From: a virus
Taxonomy: Duplodnaviria > Heunggongvirae > Uroviricota > Caudoviricetes
Virus record (IMG/VR): IMGVR_UViG_2547132272_000019
Strand: one strand, 5' to 3'
Length of the DNA stretch: 5,102 bases
The notes below the pieces were generated by a model. That model was not told the origin of the DNA, searched no databases, and was given only the letters and a program-made list of their open reading frames with translations. Positions 1 through 5,102 of the stretch are shown here, piece by piece (position 1 is the first letter of the stretch; each line of letters begins with the position of its first letter). Both the position numbers and the translations under genes were made by a program.

Positions 1-106
1 TCGCAATGACGAGATTTATCGCCGTCAGCGACAGATGAAGGACGTGCTGGATAGCCTTAATAATCTTGCCGACATCCGCGCTTTTCAGGCTGGAGAGTCA
101 GAATGA
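1..106 (+). CDS. 3' end of an upstream gene (C-terminal 34 codons, ...RNDEIYRRQRQMKDVLDSLNNLADIRAFQAGESE*); start lies outside the window; product unknown
   Basis: Open frame from position 2 to a TGA stop at 104-106. The stop overlaps the ATG at 103-105 of the next gene (ATGA), indicating translational coupling in one operon. Confidence 0.5.
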   Translation, partial: RNDEIYRRQRQMKDVLDSLNNLADIRAFQAGESE

Positions 107-816
107 AATGGGAAAAGGCAATTCTGCGCCCGTCAGCCATGAACATTAAATGCTCTGTGGTTTGCCTGCATCCATGGTCAGAAAATACCGGAAACATCAA
201 ACCATCGGGGCGTTATCTCAGCCCCGAAAATGCTGTATCTGCACTTTTACCCTATCTGAAAGAAAACACAGAAAAGGACATTGTGGCGCTGTTATTTTGC
301 GCTCCTTCTGCTGGCGAGTTTTTATCACTCGCCAGGCAATTTTCAGGCGCATTTCCGTTGCCGGAGGTGGGACGAATGTCCCGCATGATCTCCAGCCAGC
401 TTTCACTGGCCATCAGCAGAATGCAAATCCCCGCCAGACCGGCAACATCACTTCCGGAACCGATAATGCTGTCGACACAGACCACTCGCAGCATGTCGCT
501 GGCGGCAACCATTGCACAGGCAGCCACTCCTGCCGCCACATCACCGGAAACACTGTCATCATCACTGCATCAGTTCATGAATGCGAGAGATAAAGCTCTA
601 CAGGAAATCGCTGATCAGCAGGCTGCACTCCGGCAAAAATTTTGCCCGGTGTGGCGCTTTTGCTACAAGGGAGCCCTCAGCCAGGCCGCAGTGCTGATAC
701 AAAAAAACATCCCACACCCTGAGTGGGTTTTTACAGCTGTGATGCTGTTCGTCGGCGATGATCTCTCATCACTAAGGGAGGCACTACATGACCCAGATGA
801 TTGTCCTTGCGCTTGA
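103..816 (+). CDS. hypothetical protein, 237 aa, with a central Ser/Thr/Ala/Pro-rich low-complexity segment; possibly part of a phage-tail-like module
   Basis: ATG 103 overlaps the upstream stop (ATGA). GGAG at 92-95 sits 7 nt upstream. Same strand and coupled with the following genes. No family recognised from the sequence. Confidence 0.55.
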   Translation: MKWEKAILRPSAMNIKCSVVCLHPWSENTGNIKPSGRYLSPENAVSALLPYLKENTEKDIVALLFCAPSAGEFLSLARQFSGAFPLPEVGRMSRMISSQLSLAISRMQIPARPATSLPEPIMLSTQTTRSMSLAATIAQAATPAATSPETLSSSLHQFMNARDKALQEIADQQAALRQKFCPVWRFCYKGALSQAAVLIQKNIPHPEWVFTAVMLFVGDDLSSLREALHDPDDCPCA

Positions 817-1363
817 CGGGGAAGCCATTCTGCTGCGCAACATCACCGTCAGCGCCACCATGCAACTACCGGACAAAGATATGTCCGGACAGTCAACCAG
901 CACCACGAGCGCCCAGCAGGGAAGCAAGGCTAAAGAGCTGCGCGTGTCGGGGGTTATTGATTTTAACGATGAAGCTATTCTGACCCGTATTTTTCAGCTT
1001 GCGGAGGCAACAGAAAGCAATGGCGCGAAAAAAACATATCGCATTGCTAACGCTACCGCGAAGGCAATCAATATGCGACAGGGGGTATTTTCTGGTGGCA
1101 TTGATGCCACGGAACAACAGGGAAAAATGCACTGGCAGGTCACCTTTACTCTCAGGGAAAAATTAAGCGTGCCAGAGAAAGCGTCTGCACGTAGCGGTTC
1201 GCAGAAAACCATCGCCAGACAGCAGACCCAGAACGGTAGCGAACAGGCACCAGACAAAGGCATGAATACGCAAAGTTCGTTCTGGAAAAAAATCAATGAT
1301 GCCGTTGGCTCTGGTCTGGATGCTGTTGGTATCGGGAGCGTGAAAGAGGAAGGGAAAACATGA
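788..1363 (+). CDS. hypothetical protein, 191 aa; possibly part of a phage-tail-like module
   Basis: Strong Shine-Dalgarno AAGGGAGG at about 773-780, 7 nt before ATG 788. The TGA stop at 1361-1363 overlaps the ATG 1360 of the next gene (ATGA). The 29-nt overlap with the previous gene is consistent with an operon. Confidence 0.65.
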   Translation: MTQMIVLALDGEAILLRNITVSATMQLPDKDMSGQSTSTTSAQQGSKAKELRVSGVIDFNDEAILTRIFQLAEATESNGAKKTYRIANATAKAINMRQGVFSGGIDATEQQGKMHWQVTFTLREKLSVPEKASARSGSQKTIARQQTQNGSEQAPDKGMNTQSSFWKKINDAVGSGLDAVGIGSVKEEGKT

Positions 1364-3057
1364 AATTGATACAACGCTGCATGATTAATGGCGAACGGGT
1401 GGAAATTGCCGATATAAACCTTGTTCTTACCCTGAATGCTGCCGGTCGTGGCTTCATTTCTGTTAATAATCTGTCACCAGAAAAAAGCCTTGCCGGCGCA
1501 ATGGTACAAATTGATCTCGGCCGTGACGGTGAAGTCTGGCGCTATTTCTCCGGCTACGTTGAACGCGACCAACCCGCCGAAAATGGTTCGCGCCGCCTTT
1601 TTATCCGTGAAGCAGCTGCTGTGCTGGATTTTGATTTCCCCTGCTCCATGCAACACCCGACGTTGCGGGAGGTGTTAGATAATCTGGGACGACAAAGCGG
1701 CATCGTTTTTATCACCCCGGACGCGGATTATGTCAACACACCAACCCCCTACATCACCCACAGCGGCAGCGGAACGCAGCTACTCAGCCAGCTGGGGCGC
1801 GCATTCAGTATCAGCGATTACGTCTGGCACCCAATGCCGGACGGTTCTGTATTTGTGGGAAGCGCCGCTGATTCACGATTTGCCAGTATTACGATGCCGG
1901 ATATTCCGCAACAGTACGCTCTCGGGCAAAGCGGCGGAAACAGCATCGACATCATGTTCATGGAAACTGTGCGACCGGGCGTGAATCTTCCCGCCGGGCG
2001 TATTACCCGCGTAGCCCTCAACAACGAGAAAATGACTCTGACGTGGGAGCGCCTTACCGTCACGGGCAGCCCTGTCTCCAAATCACCATTACGCAGACAG
2101 ATGGAAACACAGTTCCCGGAACTGGCCAGCGGCACACTACACACCAGGCTGGCGCGCGTCATTGCACCAACGGAATCCGCCACCCTGGGCGATGTGGCCG
2201 ACAGCTTCCGTCCACGCTACGCCGTGGACGTGCAACTGCTCGATGAGGACGGCAACGATAAAAGCGATACGCCTGTTTACCCGGCAGTCCCACTCCCCGT
2301 CCCGATGGCTGGTAGCGAGGCGGGATGTTTTGCCTACCCGCCGGCAGGCACCATCGTGGAAATATCTAACATTGAAGGGCGCCCGGATAAACCTGTTATC
2401 AGGCAAATCTTACCCGCTGGCCATAACCTGCCTGATGTAAAGCCCGGCGAACAACTGCAGCAACAGCGCGCAGAAGTGTTTCAGCGCGTCACGACTGACG
2501 GAAGCTGGCACAGAGAAACAGACCAGCAAATCAGGGAGCAGTCAGCCACCCGCACAATCAACAGTGATGCAGAAGAGCGCACCACAACAACCAGAACAAC
2601 CACAGTACGGGCAAACGACATAACCAGTGTTCTGGGAACCAGCAAGCTGGCGGCAGGACAAATAGAGCACCTTACTACCGGCCATTACGCGATCGCAGCC
2701 AGCGAGCATATCCAGATGGTAGCGCAGGATTTGCTGACTAAACTCAAAGGAGCAATATCCACGATTGAGCAGGACCTGACTGAAAACGTGGGAGGCCGCA
2801 GAATATGCCGGGCGGACGGCGGTCTGAAGTTTACAGCCCCGACAGTATTTATTGGTCGCGGTGGCTCACGGGAAAAATCCGAACTTAATCTGCTGACGTT
2901 GTTGATTGATATTCTGGATCTGATTCAATTGCTGGCCACGCACACAGCAAACCACACCCACAGCAACACTGGCGCACCAATGAACAGCGGCGAACTTGCC
3001 GCAGATGCCCTGCAGGCTACGAGCCTGCGCGAAAAATACGGCGACCTTATCGCCTGA
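1360..3057 (+). CDS. 565-aa protein, putative phage tail / baseplate-hub (P2 gpD 'late control D'-like) protein; family assignment tentative
   Basis: Long ORF with SD GAGGAAGGG upstream and an ATGA overlap with the preceding gene. The N-terminal segment INGERVEIADINLVLTLNAAGRGF matches, from memory, the I-x-GE-x-V-x-I-...-L-x-L-...-RGF pattern of gpD-type tail proteins. Contains a TTTTRTTTV low-complexity stretch and a His-rich C-terminus (HTANHTHSNTG). Followed by an intrinsic terminator. Confidence 0.5.
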   Translation: MKLIQRCMINGERVEIADINLVLTLNAAGRGFISVNNLSPEKSLAGAMVQIDLGRDGEVWRYFSGYVERDQPAENGSRRLFIREAAAVLDFDFPCSMQHPTLREVLDNLGRQSGIVFITPDADYVNTPTPYITHSGSGTQLLSQLGRAFSISDYVWHPMPDGSVFVGSAADSRFASITMPDIPQQYALGQSGGNSIDIMFMETVRPGVNLPAGRITRVALNNEKMTLTWERLTVTGSPVSKSPLRRQMETQFPELASGTLHTRLARVIAPTESATLGDVADSFRPRYAVDVQLLDEDGNDKSDTPVYPAVPLPVPMAGSEAGCFAYPPAGTIVEISNIEGRPDKPVIRQILPAGHNLPDVKPGEQLQQQRAEVFQRVTTDGSWHRETDQQIREQSATRTINSDAEERTTTTRTTTVRANDITSVLGTSKLAAGQIEHLTTGHYAIAASEHIQMVAQDLLTKLKGAISTIEQDLTENVGGRRICRADGGLKFTAPTVFIGRGGSREKSELNLLTLLIDILDLIQLLATHTANHTHSNTGAPMNSGELAADALQATSLREKYGDLIA

Positions 3058-3095
3058 TCACCTGGACATAAAAGCCACATAAACGCCCATCACAC

Positions 3096-3123
3096 AACGC
3101 ACGGCTTCGGCCGTGCGTTTTCA
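3096..3123 (+). terminator. Rho-independent terminator of the + strand operon
   Basis: Perfect 10-bp inverted repeat aacgcacggc (3096-3105) / gccgtgcgtt (3110-3119) with a TTCG tetraloop, followed by a T-run; lies 39 nt after the stop at 3057. Confidence 0.7.
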
Positions 3124-3188
3124 TATCTGCCACCTGATTAATGCGTTCTGCGCGCCATTCTGGCGCTGTATGCGCACACCGCGTAAAC

Positions 3189-3218
3189 GGTGTGACGTAA
3201 AGCGTGAGGTGACGTAAA
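3189..3218. repeat. tandem direct repeat GGTG(T)GACGTAAA, two copies about 19 bp apart; possible protein-binding sites
   Basis: ggtgtgacgtaaa at 3189-3201 and ggtgacgtaaa at 3208-3218; a further CGTAAA at 3182-3187 sits in the loop of a 7-bp hairpin (cacaccg/cggtgtg, 3175-3194). Confidence 0.4.
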
Positions 3219-3324
3219 CCGCGCTACCCCCTCCAACCCGCGGGTTTTGTGTCGAAACACTTTTTCAGTTTTCTGCCGTGCAAAAATGACCGCCAGCCCG
3301 CGCAGCGACTGAGGGAAAAGCGAA

Positions 3325-3583
3325 GATCTGAAATTTCACGCTTTGAAATTTTTTGCAGTTTTCAGCGAGTTTTTTACGATCTCATAAATGGCAGGAGCAA
3401 TGAAACCGCATGATATTAAAAGAGTTTTCATACTTTACGCGAGACAAAAAAACGATCACGAAAGGATCGCATCAAACAACCATCAAACAGCGAAGTCAGA
3501 CGCGGCGCGGCCTGCGTAAAATTGAGAGTCAAAATTAAACTGAAAAAAGGATCAATACCGCGCCTCGATCGCGCATGACGATC
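3325..3583. repeat. GATC-dense, AT-rich block (7 Dam sites in about 260 bp) with short direct repeats
   Basis: GATC at 3325, 3378, 3454, 3465, 3550, 3567 and 3580, versus about 8 in the remaining ~4.8 kb. Includes catcaaaca x2 (3469-3491), an imperfect repeat ttttt(g)cagttttc (3262-3282 vs 3350-3370), and an A7 run plus 5-bp hairpin at 3446-3469. Confidence 0.5.
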
Positions 3584-3600
3584 TATGCAGCAACAGGACG

Positions 3601-3623
3601 AAAAAAACCGGCGCGAACGCCGG
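3601..3623 (-). terminator. Rho-independent terminator on the - strand
   Basis: GC-rich 6-bp stem ccggcg (3608-3613) / cgccgg (3618-3623) with a CGAA loop. On the - strand it is followed by U7 (the + strand A-run at 3601-3607); on the + strand there is no U-tail. Confidence 0.55.
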
Positions 3624-3664
3624 CGGAAGCATGTATCAAATGCGTGACTGAATAATGTCTGCGG
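3601..3664 (-). ncRNA. candidate ~60-nt small RNA, divergent from the hok promoter; function unknown
   Basis: A - strand promoter-like pair lies about 7 nt upstream of the predicted start, and the strong - strand terminator at 3601-3623 lies about 60 nt downstream. No ORF with an RBS in between. Confidence 0.35.
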
Positions 3665-3670
3665 TCGGGA

Positions 3671-3700
3671 ATTTTACATCAGAAGGCTGATAAGTCTCAA
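3671..3700 (-). promoter_or_regulatory. sigma70-like promoter for the candidate sRNA
   Basis: Read on the - strand: -35 TTGAGA (+ strand 3695-3700), 18-bp spacer, -10 TAAAAT (+ strand 3671-3676). Back-to-back with the hok promoter. Confidence 0.35.
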
Positions 3701-3704
3701 CGGA

Positions 3705-3734
3705 TTGAAACAAGGGAAAAAACCAGGCTAGAAT
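3705..3734 (+). promoter_or_regulatory. putative hok mRNA promoter
   Basis: -35 TTGAAA (3705-3710), 18-bp spacer, -10 TAGAAT (3729-3734). Predicted start near 3741 coincides with the 5' element that pairs with the mRNA 3' end. Confidence 0.4.
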
Positions 3735-3784
3735 TCGCGCGGGTGCCTTTCGGCTGATGGCTGGAGGGAATACCCGAAGGCCGA

Positions 3785-3970
3785 ATGTGGAAAGGCCCCG
3801 AGTCAACTTTAACGTTAACCCGAGGCCCTAGCCATACAACCTTCGCAAGTCGTAGGTTAGCGCCTCCCCGAAAAAGGAGCAAGCGCTATGTCGCAAAAAT
3901 CGCTTACGGCCATTACGTTCTGCGTAACGGCAATCCTCATCATCTGGATGCTACACGGTTCACTGTGTGA
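3785..3970 (+). CDS. mok-like overlapping reading frame (61 codons) for translational coupling to hok
   Basis: ATG 3785 preceded by GAAGG (3776-3780). The frame overlaps the hok start and ends inside hok in a different frame, matching hok/mok architecture. No independent homology recognised. Confidence 0.35.
   Translation: MWKGPESTLTLTRGPSHTTFASRRLAPPRKRSKRYVAKIAYGHYVLRNGNPHHLDATRFTV
3786..3847 (-). ncRNA. Sok-like cis-antisense antitoxin RNA (about 60 nt); boundaries approximate
   Basis: Expected by hok/sok architecture. A - strand promoter candidate overlaps the hok SD. The extended hairpin at 3794-3827 is fully paired only on the - strand transcript (G-U wobbles there are C/A mismatches on the + strand) and is followed by UUU on the - strand. 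Confidence 0.3.
3854..3882 (-). promoter_or_regulatory. candidate Sok promoter
   Basis: Read on the - strand: -35 TTGCTC (+ strand 3877-3882), 17-bp spacer, -10 TAACCT (+ strand 3854-3859). It overlaps the hok SD region. An alternative pair is -35 TTGTAT (3834-3839) with -10 TAACGT (3812-3817). Confidence 0.25.
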
Positions 3971-4028
3971 GATACGGATGAGCTTCTGGGGAGCGGAGTT
4001 TGCGGCGTTCTTACAATGTAGACAGTAA
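3888..4028 (+). CDS. hok: Hok/Gef-family type I toxin, 46 aa (MSQKSLTAITFCVTAILIIWMLHGSLCEIRMSFWGAEFAAFLQCRQ); specific paralog not determined
   Basis: AAGGAG at 3874-3879, 8 nt before ATG 3888. N-terminal hydrophobic transmembrane stretch, then the Hok hallmark SLCEIR and a C-terminal E-x-AAF-L motif (compare Hok ...[22 protein letters not shown]). The ORF is below the size cut-off of the supplied track. Confidence 0.75.
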   Translation: MSQKSLTAITFCVTAILIIWMLHGSLCEIRMSFWGAEFAAFLQCRQ

Positions 4029-4114
4029 GAAAACCGCGACGGGGAAGGCAACTTCCCCGTCAATCGGTTGCCAGGGTAAGGCCGATAAGGCACCCTATAC
4101 ACATCCCAAAGCAG

Positions 4115-4151
4115 AAACCCGCAGCGTAAAACTGCGGGTTTTCTTTTTCTT
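4115..4151. terminator. bidirectional intrinsic terminator shared by the hok mRNA (+) and the convergent yidD-like operon (-)
   Basis: 10-bp stem aaacccgcag (4115-4124) / ctgcgggttt (4132-4141) with loop CGTAAAA. On the + strand it is followed by TCTTTTTCTT; on the - strand by CUGCUUUG. It lies 7 nt from the yidD-like stop at 4158. Confidence 0.65.
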
Positions 4152-4157
4152 ACGCGC

Positions 4158-4391
4158 TCACGATTTGCGACATTTACAAATATGAGGAGGGTAATCTGCA
4201 CCACCATTAGGCGGACGACAGCGATAAATCCGGCTCAATCCTAATCGCCAGCCTTCAAAAAAGCCATAGCGCCTTATTGACACCAAAGTGTAAGCCGAAC
4301 AGCTTGGAGTATAACGACATCTGTTACGAATGCTGGCTGGCGCATGAGCACGATAATAAAGAATCAGACGTATACTAAGCCATTTAAGCAT
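4158..4391 (-). CDS. YidD-family protein (PF01809, putative membrane protein insertion efficiency factor paralog), 77 aa
   Basis: Translation contains the YidD signature ...RCRYTPSCSAY...GW.L...RI.RC.P...GG.D.P and aligns well with E. coli YidD as recalled from memory. Its start overlaps the stop of the upstream 80-aa gene by 8 nt. Confidence 0.7.
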   Translation of the reverse strand: MLKWLSIRLILYYRAHAPASIRNRCRYTPSCSAYTLVSIRRYGFFEGWRLGLSRIYRCRPPNGGADYPPHICKCRKS

Positions 4392-4626
4392 CTGATACTT
4401 TTTTTCTAAAAGTAATCACATAGTATTGAAAAAACTGCGCCTTTCCGCCACCGAAACACCCCGGCTGCTCTTCTATACCAATCGTATCAACCCGTTGAAA
4501 TTCCCAGCCATCCGCCGCCTGTTCATTAACAACATTCTGAAGATATGCAGCAGCTACCCCCGCTTTATTATCTTTTGCCTTTACAGAAATATTCGGCGGC
4601 ACCTGAATCATTTTATAGGTATACAT
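4384..4626 (-). CDS. small conserved hypothetical protein, 80 aa (possibly DUF4177-like)
   Basis: Strong SD AAGGAG 8 nt upstream of ATG 4626. Translationally coupled to the yidD-like gene. Compact globular-looking sequence with a GWE motif; the family call is from memory only. Confidence 0.55.
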   Translation of the reverse strand: MYTYKMIQVPPNISVKAKDNKAGVAAAYLQNVVNEQAADGWEFQRVDTIGIEEQPGCFGGGKAQFFQYYVITFRKKVSDA

Positions 4627-4772
4627 TACCTGAGCTCCTTTAATAAAAAAGACAGTAATAAACGCCCTAAAACAGCCCGCACCTCACGATGCGAGCATTA
4701 GATCACTATGGCAATATGTGGACAACGCGAAAAATAATCCATTATTTTTCATTGCATTACAGCAGTTTTCGT

Positions 4773-4788
4773 GCCACCCGAAGGTGGC
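4773..4788. other. GC-rich stem-loop in the ytfP / downstream-gene intergenic region
   Basis: gccacc (4773-4778) / ggtggc (4783-4788) with a CGAA loop, just after the ytfP stop. No U-tail on the - strand, so it is not a canonical ytfP terminator; it may be an RNA-stability or attenuator element. Confidence 0.3.
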
Positions 4789-4797
4789 GTGTTTATA

Positions 4798-5102
4798 TTA
4801 TGACTTATCCCTGTCTAACCAGTCGCCGCTTTCAATCAGCGTTAATCCATCGACGGGTCGTTGATAAACGTACATCCATGCACTCCCGTACGGCGTCTGA
4901 ATCAACTGGCGCGCGTATTCACCGCCCCTGGTGCGCAAGGCATCAAGTTCGGCCAGCGTGGCGTTGTCAATACGATAAACTTCACCGTGTACCGTTCCGT
5001 TTCCCGGAACTGCGCCTGGATAGTGGCCCAGGCTATACAACTGGTAGTTATCGATACTGAAATCGCCCAGCAACTGGGCATTGGTCATCCAGTGGCTGGG
5101 GG
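4798..5102 (-). CDS. ytfP: gamma-glutamylcyclotransferase-family (AIG2/GGCT-like) protein YtfP, 3' portion; start lies beyond the window end
   Basis: Translation ...SHWMTNAQLLGDFSIDNYQLYSLGHYPGAVPGNGTVHGEVYRIDNATLAELDALRTRGGEYARQLIQTPYGSAWMYVYQRPVDGLTLIESGDWLDRDKS* matches E. coli YtfP as recalled from memory. The frame stays open to the window edge upstream of the track's Met at 5088. Confidence 0.8.
   Translation of the reverse strand, partial: PSHWMTNAQLLGDFSIDNYQLYSLGHYPGAVPGNGTVHGEVYRIDNATLAELDALRTRGGEYARQLIQTPYGSAWMYVYQRPVDGLTLIESGDWLDRDKS

Follow-up and report, generated by a model that had tools for sequence, protein, structure and literature searches.

Three type I toxin-antitoxin systems, IstR-1/tisB, OhsC/shoB and OrzO/zorO, have an RNA gene with its own promoter and intrinsic terminator that points away from the promoter of a small hydrophobic toxin gene, and the RNAs IstR-1, OhsC and OrzO have about 18-21 nt of complementarity to the 5' UTR of the toxin mRNA. 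In the hok/sok system, the Sok RNA of about 60-65 nt has a single-stranded 5' tail and a 3' hairpin, and it overlaps the hok leader. Other small RNAs are carried by prophages: PasA-D, Esr41, AgvB/AsxR, DicF and IpeX occupy accessory (moron) positions, have their own promoter and end in a stem-loop with poly-U, and the orphan Hfq-type sRNAs of E. coli prophages have in common a patchy strain distribution. Phage morons also have their own promoter and terminator and are placed between backbone genes; classical morons encode proteins. The Pas sRNAs are found in lambdoid (Stx-like) prophages, where their neighbours are Q, RusA or lysis genes, and more than 1,000 E. coli genomes contain them (bioRxiv 10.64898/2026.05.13.724894).

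Here we analysed a window of 5,102 nucleotides from the right arm of a P2/HP1-like prophage, in which an earlier note had proposed a divergent sRNA gene of about 60 nt directly upstream of a hok promoter. An independent consensus scan of 3000-4450 returned the proposed TTGAGA-18-TAAAAT promoter at the same coordinates: on the - strand, the -35 hexamer TTGAGA (3700-3695) and the -10 hexamer TAAAAT (3676-3671) are separated by a spacer of 18 bp and match 10 of the 12 consensus positions. Scanning and folding also confirmed the terminator, which had been described as a 6-bp GC stem followed by U7. The hairpin GCCGGCG-UUCG-CGCCGGU (3624-3607, - strand) has a UUCG loop and a stem of 7 pairs, six G-C and one G.U, and is followed by a T7 tract (3606-3600, - strand) that ranges from T5 to T8 in an alignment of the relatives. 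The site therefore has the GC-rich hairpin and the U-tract (U5-U8) of a rho-independent terminator. The unit was correctly placed back-to-back with the hok promoter, the two -35 hexamers being 4 bp apart on opposite strands, and it lies adjacent to and divergent from the toxin gene, as is characteristic of type I antitoxin genes of the IstR-1 kind.

Chance was estimated with first-order Markov sequences of the window's composition. In these sequences, a promoter match of at least 10/12 falls within 121 nt upstream of a given terminator with a probability of 0.0054, which rises to 0.042 when a match of 9/12 is enough. Terminator-like sites are enriched in the region (8, versus 2.3 expected), and 6 of the 8 are on the - strand. 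Even given these 8 sites, the value of 0.0054 indicates that the promoter-terminator pair is beyond chance.

Judged by the position of the -10 hexamer, transcription would start at A3665 and yield an RNA of about 62-66 nt. The predicted 5' body of about 41 nt (3665-3625, - strand) ends in AUGCUUCC directly 5' of the hairpin. The RNA folds with a minimum free energy of -17.1 kcal/mol (z = -1.8), to which the hairpin contributes most; the 5' 40 nt or so are predicted to be essentially unstructured, and the fold is essentially the terminator alone. A 3' hairpin, six or more U residues and a single-stranded upstream region make up the layout of an Hfq-type RNA, and the candidate has this layout, with only U5 in two variants. 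The only ORFs that touch the unit are two of 26 aa each, at 3632-3552 on the - strand and at 3575-3655 on the + strand. Both cross the T/A run, and neither has a Pfam match. Because the T-run varies between 5 and 8 nt among the relatives and thereby frameshifts both ORFs, the unit is non-coding and a small protein from either ORF is ruled out; the claim of the earlier note that no ORF lies between promoter and terminator thus holds.

The genetic setting was established from the complete element of A36, which runs from int through C/cox-like regulators, a replication endonuclease, parM/R and ogr to portal/terminase, scaffold/capsid/gpM/gpL, tail, baseplate J and tail fibre genes. The full prophage has the P2-type Q/P/O/N/M/L genes together with an HP1 ORF34-like baseplate gene. 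A Mu-like phage, which a com gene with a methyltransferase gene and the varied insertion sites had suggested, was ruled out by int, gpA, ogr and the P2-type genes. The three window ORFs come after the tail fibre genes; they are co-oriented (103-3057) and encode 237, 191 and 565 aa. The 191-aa ORF is the only one that falls in a family, matching the Pfam HP1 ORF34 baseplate family (E 8e-54). The 565-aa protein has no Pfam match and is called 'Vgr family' in one RefSeq record, and some relatives have a short - strand ORF in place of the 237-aa ORF. Past the stop of the last ORF at 3057 follow a + strand terminator, a non-coding block (3130-3590), the candidate unit, the hok cassette and the prophage/host junction at about 4148, so that the hok/sok cassette adjoins attR. 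The host flank differs among lysogens, being ytfP/yidD-like in the window and serS or raiA elsewhere. In the window it comprises, on the - strand at 4158-5088, a YidD-like gene (77 aa), a DUF4177 gene (80 aa) and a fragment of a ytfP-like gamma-glutamylcyclotransferase gene. STEC316 has two copies of the prophage arm.

Escherichia and Edwardsiella prophages both conserve the non-coding block of about 450 nt that follows the last baseplate gene, and at 3180-3340 its diversity is as low as 0-0.04. Three GACGTAAA repeats (3176-3220) lie in this block, as do T-rich TTTTCAG repeats, and by analogy with the genome map of HP1 the block could be the cos/packaging region. In the 271 nt of 3320-3590 there are seven GATC (Dam) sites (at 3325, 3378, 3454, 3465, 3550, 3567 and 3580), where about 0.9 would be expected and none of 5,000 simulations reached 7. 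Five of the seven are retained in Edwardsiella prophages at only about 70% identity. The cluster suggests a Dam/SeqA-sensitive DNA element; the pac site of phage P1 is likewise GATC-rich. The consensus scan also found a second terminator-like hairpin on the - strand at 3470-3452, GCGATCC-UUUCG-UGAUCGU followed by T7. It lies 150 nt to the left of the candidate terminator, has a GATC in each arm and is conserved in Edwardsiella prophages.

On the other side of the unit, the consensus scan placed the hok promoter TTGAAA(3705)-18-TAGAAT(3734) at 3705-3734 and the hok terminator at 4114-4142, both on the + strand. The ORF list gave a mok-like ORF (3785-3970) and the hok coding sequence (3888-4028; Pfam HOK_GEF, E 4e-7) on the same strand. 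Hok in the window has only 46 aa (MSQKSL...FLQCRQ). An Rfam 15 covariance-model scan of the whole window at E<=1 gave a single match nearby, RF01794 at 3741-3901 on the + strand (E 9e-6), aligned from model position 1. Since model position 1 falls at 3741, the +1 of the hok mRNA is set at 3741 and the mRNA spans 3741-4142. RF01794 is named 'sok antitoxin' and matches the hok sense strand from +1, and the model therefore describes the hok leader and not Sok itself. The match scores 36.7 bits, below the gathering score of 59, which indicates that this hok allele is divergent.

By analogy with hok/sok of R1, the hok leader contains a predicted canonical Sok, and the region so predicted lies within the RF01794 match. 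The putative Sok promoter TTGCTC(3882-3877)-17-TAACCT(3859-3854) is on the - strand at 3882-3854, the predicted antisense RNA is at 3847-3788, and its hairpin, followed by a weak UUU tract, is at 3828-3794. The hexamer TTGAGA lies on the left edge of the hok cassette and forms the palindrome TCAA-N4-TTGA with hok's own -35. Three different hok cassettes have at their left edge a - strand TTGA(G/C)(A/T) 4 bp from the hok -35 (window 3694-3710; L002 8135-8150; L026 1497-1514), and the palindrome may serve as a site for a regulator or as a boundary of recombination.

The earlier note had found no convincing complementarity between the candidate RNA and the hok mRNA, and our comparison bears this out. 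Against the hok mRNA, the 5' part of the RNA has a longest Watson-Crick match of 6 nt (8 nt when G-U pairs are allowed), compared with a shuffle mean of 6.6, and 472 of 500 shuffles did as well or better. The longest match to the predicted Sok is 5 nt, at or below the shuffle mean, and the duplex energies with the hok mRNA and with Sok are inside the shuffle distributions. Both the complementary runs and the energies thus argue against antisense action on either RNA. In the 36.7-kb prophage of A36, the longest perfect complement is 10 nt, which equals the shuffle median, and a target inside the prophage was rejected on this ground. Thus, unlike IstR-1, OhsC and OrzO, the candidate has no extended match to the toxin mRNA, and its neighbouring toxin gene already has a predicted cis-antisense Sok. 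The candidate resembles Sok in length, in its single-stranded 5' part and 3' hairpin, and in lying at the same locus and on the same strand. It differs from Sok in being wholly upstream of the hok +1, whereas the predicted Sok overlaps the leader, and the two RNAs have neither sequence similarity nor complementarity.

A search of 5,426 complete E. coli genomes located the stretch 3560-3740 in 41, on chromosomes only. The unit is also present in E. albertii, in 17 IMG/VR contigs and in 5 metagenome contigs; the IMG/VR and metagenome scans returned only near-identical copies of the Escherichia type, and the phage collection gave no match. In the plasmid collection, homology to the window begins only at 3697 or, for IncI1 plasmids, at 3694-3697, and upstream of this homology the IncI1 hok loci have no -10, no body and no terminator. 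Related hok cassettes are found in 1,754 E. coli genomes. All but the 41 (about 1,700) match the window only from 3717 or further right, that is, from within the hok promoter, and have no candidate unit. In a typical P2-like prophage, the hok cassette directly follows ogr without a leftward unit; this ogr-hok locus (L032) adjoins serS. Edwardsiella prophages, which are 60% identical, share the non-coding block up to about 3575 and lack the unit. E. ictaluri has hok/sok at the same prophage position (Rfam sok 63.6 bits, above the gathering score), and the 130 nt between the shared block and hok are unrelated to the window and contain no leftward promoter or terminator. This E. ictaluri locus (L006 4882-5176, at the att-proximal end) encodes a classic Hok of 50 aa; E. 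anguillarum (L007) is without a hok/sok locus. The E. ictaluri locus and the ogr-hok locus indicate that hok cassettes are found repeatedly at the att-proximal end of P2-family prophages. The unit is therefore not co-inherited with the toxin, and its absence from the other hok loci makes it specific to one Escherichia prophage lineage and not a component of the hok locus.

Together with the window, 27 related loci gave 16 distinct RNA sequences, in 13 of which the hairpin is unchanged. In L028, a G-C pair has become G-U and the outer G.U pair has become A-U, and both changes preserve pairing; L002 has only the outermost G.U pair broken, and L011 has lost the outermost C-G pair. The 34 nt of the body at 3625-3658 have 2 variable sites among the 16 sequences. 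Diversity (pi) is 0.045 at 3600-3629 and 0.016 at 3630-3659, compared with 0.09-0.16 in variable non-coding sequence (3360-3539) and about 0.05 in the neighbouring coding sequence, and it reaches 0.16 in 3660-3719. By these values the RNA body and hairpin appear as a conserved island of low diversity; low diversity continues to the left of the terminator, at 3540-3599, outside the RNA. A covariation analysis gave a term of -0.08 kcal/mol and no double-sided changes among 12 distinct sequences, which vary too little to test the structure. The elements of the unit exist, and they are non-random, conserved and non-coding.

The relatives fall into two right-arm alleles that diverge from about 3664 on, exactly at the predicted RNA start. 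Of the 22 distinct sequences in one alignment, 17 are of allele A, as are 5 of 5 metagenome loci and 33 of the 41 E. coli genomes. This allele comprises at least 8 promoter haplotypes, in which the -10 is always TAAAAT or TAGAAT and the -35 is TTGAGA or TTGAGG except in L024 (TTGGGG); the spacer is constantly 18 bp though about 8 of its positions vary. Such kept hexamers and spacing around a varying spacer sequence would be expected of a promoter in use. In allele B, the body and terminator are present, the -35 is TTGACT, and there is no -10 (best 2/6 positions); a promoter scan of this allele returned no promoter. The -35-like hexamer is constant at the edge of the hok cassette, as TTGAGA, TTGACT or, in an IncI1 plasmid, TTGACA. 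Since it is kept in hok cassettes without the unit, its conservation is no evidence for a leftward promoter. Because allele B keeps the body without the -10, conservation of the body is independent of this promoter; since the backbones of the two alleles hardly differ, however, the retention may only reflect a recent exchange of the arm. The right arm of allele B has a different hok allele, then a Com-family zinc-finger gene that overlaps a DNA methyltransferase gene (L002 9157-10105; L003 8723-9671). Allele A has hok alone, without com and the methyltransferase gene. The entire right arm, between about 3664 and attR, is exchanged as one module. The earlier note had made its proposal depend on a promoter and terminator conserved in homologous loci: they are absent from most hok homologues and conserved inside the allele-A prophage lineage.

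The Rfam scan, which the earlier note had suggested, gave no match overlapping 3600-3700, RF01794 in the hok leader being the only family nearby. A full-text search of the literature with a 15-mer of the RNA body, in DNA and RNA spelling, found no match. The Pas sRNAs are the nearest lead in the literature, since Sok matches are frequent in the flanks of PasA. Judged by the published description of the Pas sRNAs, the candidate is not one of them, since it differs in context (P2/HP1-like) and in distribution (41 genomes). With the prophage RNAs described above, the candidate has in common the accessory position, its own promoter, the stem-loop with poly-U and a patchy strain distribution. With phage morons it shares a promoter and terminator of its own between backbone genes: the candidate and hok lie between the last tail/baseplate gene, the non-coding block and attR, on an arm that can be exchanged. 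Unlike a classical moron, it would carry an RNA as its cargo, and its promoter lies across the boundary of the module.

What the unit does may be read in several ways. The main rival to the reading favoured below, a serious if still doubtful possibility, is that only the terminator is functional, as an insulator of the prophage backbone, and that the allele-A promoter is incidental. Together with the hairpin at 3470-3452, the terminator would stop leftward transcription from hok/sok (Sok read-through) or from host genes past attR; it would protect the packaging-like non-coding block and prevent antisense transcription into the late tail operon. On this view, the promoter would have come about as a by-product where a TTGAC-like cassette edge met an AT-rich junction, and the short RNA would be incidental. 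An insulator is consistent with the weak U-tract of Sok itself, only UUU in allele A, with the excess of terminator-like sites, mostly on the - strand, with the lack of an RNA target in the hok mRNA, Sok or the prophage, and with a -35-like hexamer that is constant in hok cassettes devoid of the unit. The alleles also argue for it: body and terminator are kept in allele B without a -10, and the allele break at about 3664 coincides with the predicted start and assigns the terminator to the backbone and the promoter to the cassette. It leaves unexplained, however, why non-coding variation is lowest in the 34 nt that lie 5' of the hairpin and why the -10 and the 18-bp spacing persist in at least 8 allele-A haplotypes. 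A 10/12 promoter this near to the terminator would occur by chance with a probability of about 0.005, and the E. ictaluri relative has hok at the same place without such a terminator.

The remaining readings connect the unit to hok or to the DNA itself. That the RNA is a type I antitoxin encoded in trans, or a second hok regulator, and pairs with the hok mRNA or Sok is suggested by the back-to-back position at a type I toxin promoter and by the fact that in Escherichia the unit is always accompanied by a hok cassette. Against it stand matches of 6 nt and 5 nt with energies at the shuffle level, the canonical Sok promoter and hairpin already predicted in the leader, the lack of the unit in some 1,700 E. 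coli genomes that have related hok cassettes, in IncI1 plasmids, in a P2-like ogr-hok locus and in E. ictaluri, and the missing -10 of allele B. We consider antisense-pairing antitoxin action largely refuted, and a regulator of this kind extremely improbable. An effect at the level of the promoters is unlikely: the leftward promoter would compete or cooperate with the hok promoter and so tune hok in allele A, with a disposable RNA. The two -35 hexamers are 4 bp apart, the UP region of each promoter overlaps the core of the other, and TCAA-N4-TTGA is conserved at the edge of three hok cassettes, but the conservation of the RNA body would be unexplained, and most hok cassettes function without a leftward promoter. 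It is also quite unlikely that the unit is a third component of this hok locus by a route other than antisense pairing, which could be coupled or competing promoters or an RNA acting on a host factor for hok processing or Sok turnover. A DNA-level site (for packaging, Dam/SeqA or a recombination protein) or a small protein gene is very unlikely. Low diversity does run from the unit into 3540-3599, with three GATC sites, and conservation of that part extends as far as Edwardsiella; it stops there at about 3575, however, which leaves the hairpin and the body outside, and the small ORFs, as noted above, are frameshifted and match no Pfam family.

We favour, with a probability of roughly 0.45, the reading that the unit is an orphan, moron-type prophage sRNA gene. 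The joint occurrence of promoter and terminator, with its chance of about 0.005 per terminator, and the pair-preserving terminator variant of L028 count for this reading, while the narrow spread (41 of 5,426 E. coli genomes), the absence from the Edwardsiella relatives and the lack of a target in the hok mRNA, Sok or the 37-kb prophage count against it. The P2/HP1-like prophages of one Escherichia lineage would thus carry it as an independent, small non-coding transcription unit. Its sigma-70 promoter would fire leftward in lysogens of allele A, from about A3665. This promoter would be composite, with the -35 provided by the edge of the hok cassette and the -10 by the junction sequence. The UUCG-looped hairpin with its U5-8 tract would halt transcription at about 62-66 nt, and the RNA would be expressed from the prophage accessory (moron) position. 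With a conserved and unstructured 5' part of 40 nt followed by a hairpin and poly-U, the RNA would be laid out like an sRNA that base-pairs in trans and probably binds Hfq. We infer from these features that the promoter fires, that the RNA has the predicted size, and that it acts in trans and depends on Hfq; the target would presumably be a host or competitor mRNA and not hok, Sok or another prophage transcript. Thus, the compact, ORF-free divergent unit proposed in the earlier note stands, with a conserved body, and the suggested role as a second regulator of hok in the manner of IstR or OhsC does not, given chance-level pairing and the absence of the unit from most related hok cassettes.

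The unit is linked to hok by position only. Since the pairing test and the test of co-inheritance with the toxin both failed, an IstR/OhsC-type function is unsupported, and the unit should not be annotated as a type I antitoxin. This negative result matters because it places the unit outside the hok/sok system, related cassettes being found near attR in P2-like and HP1-like prophages and on IncI1 plasmids without it. If the unit were nevertheless a third component of this locus, the prophage would have added an extra layer of control to the classical hok/sok module. If its transcript is confirmed, the alleles with and without the -10 would offer a ready natural comparison for finding the target, and an sRNA of P2/HP1-like prophages would be added to a catalogue of E. 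coli and E. albertii prophage sRNAs that is dominated by those of lambdoid phages.
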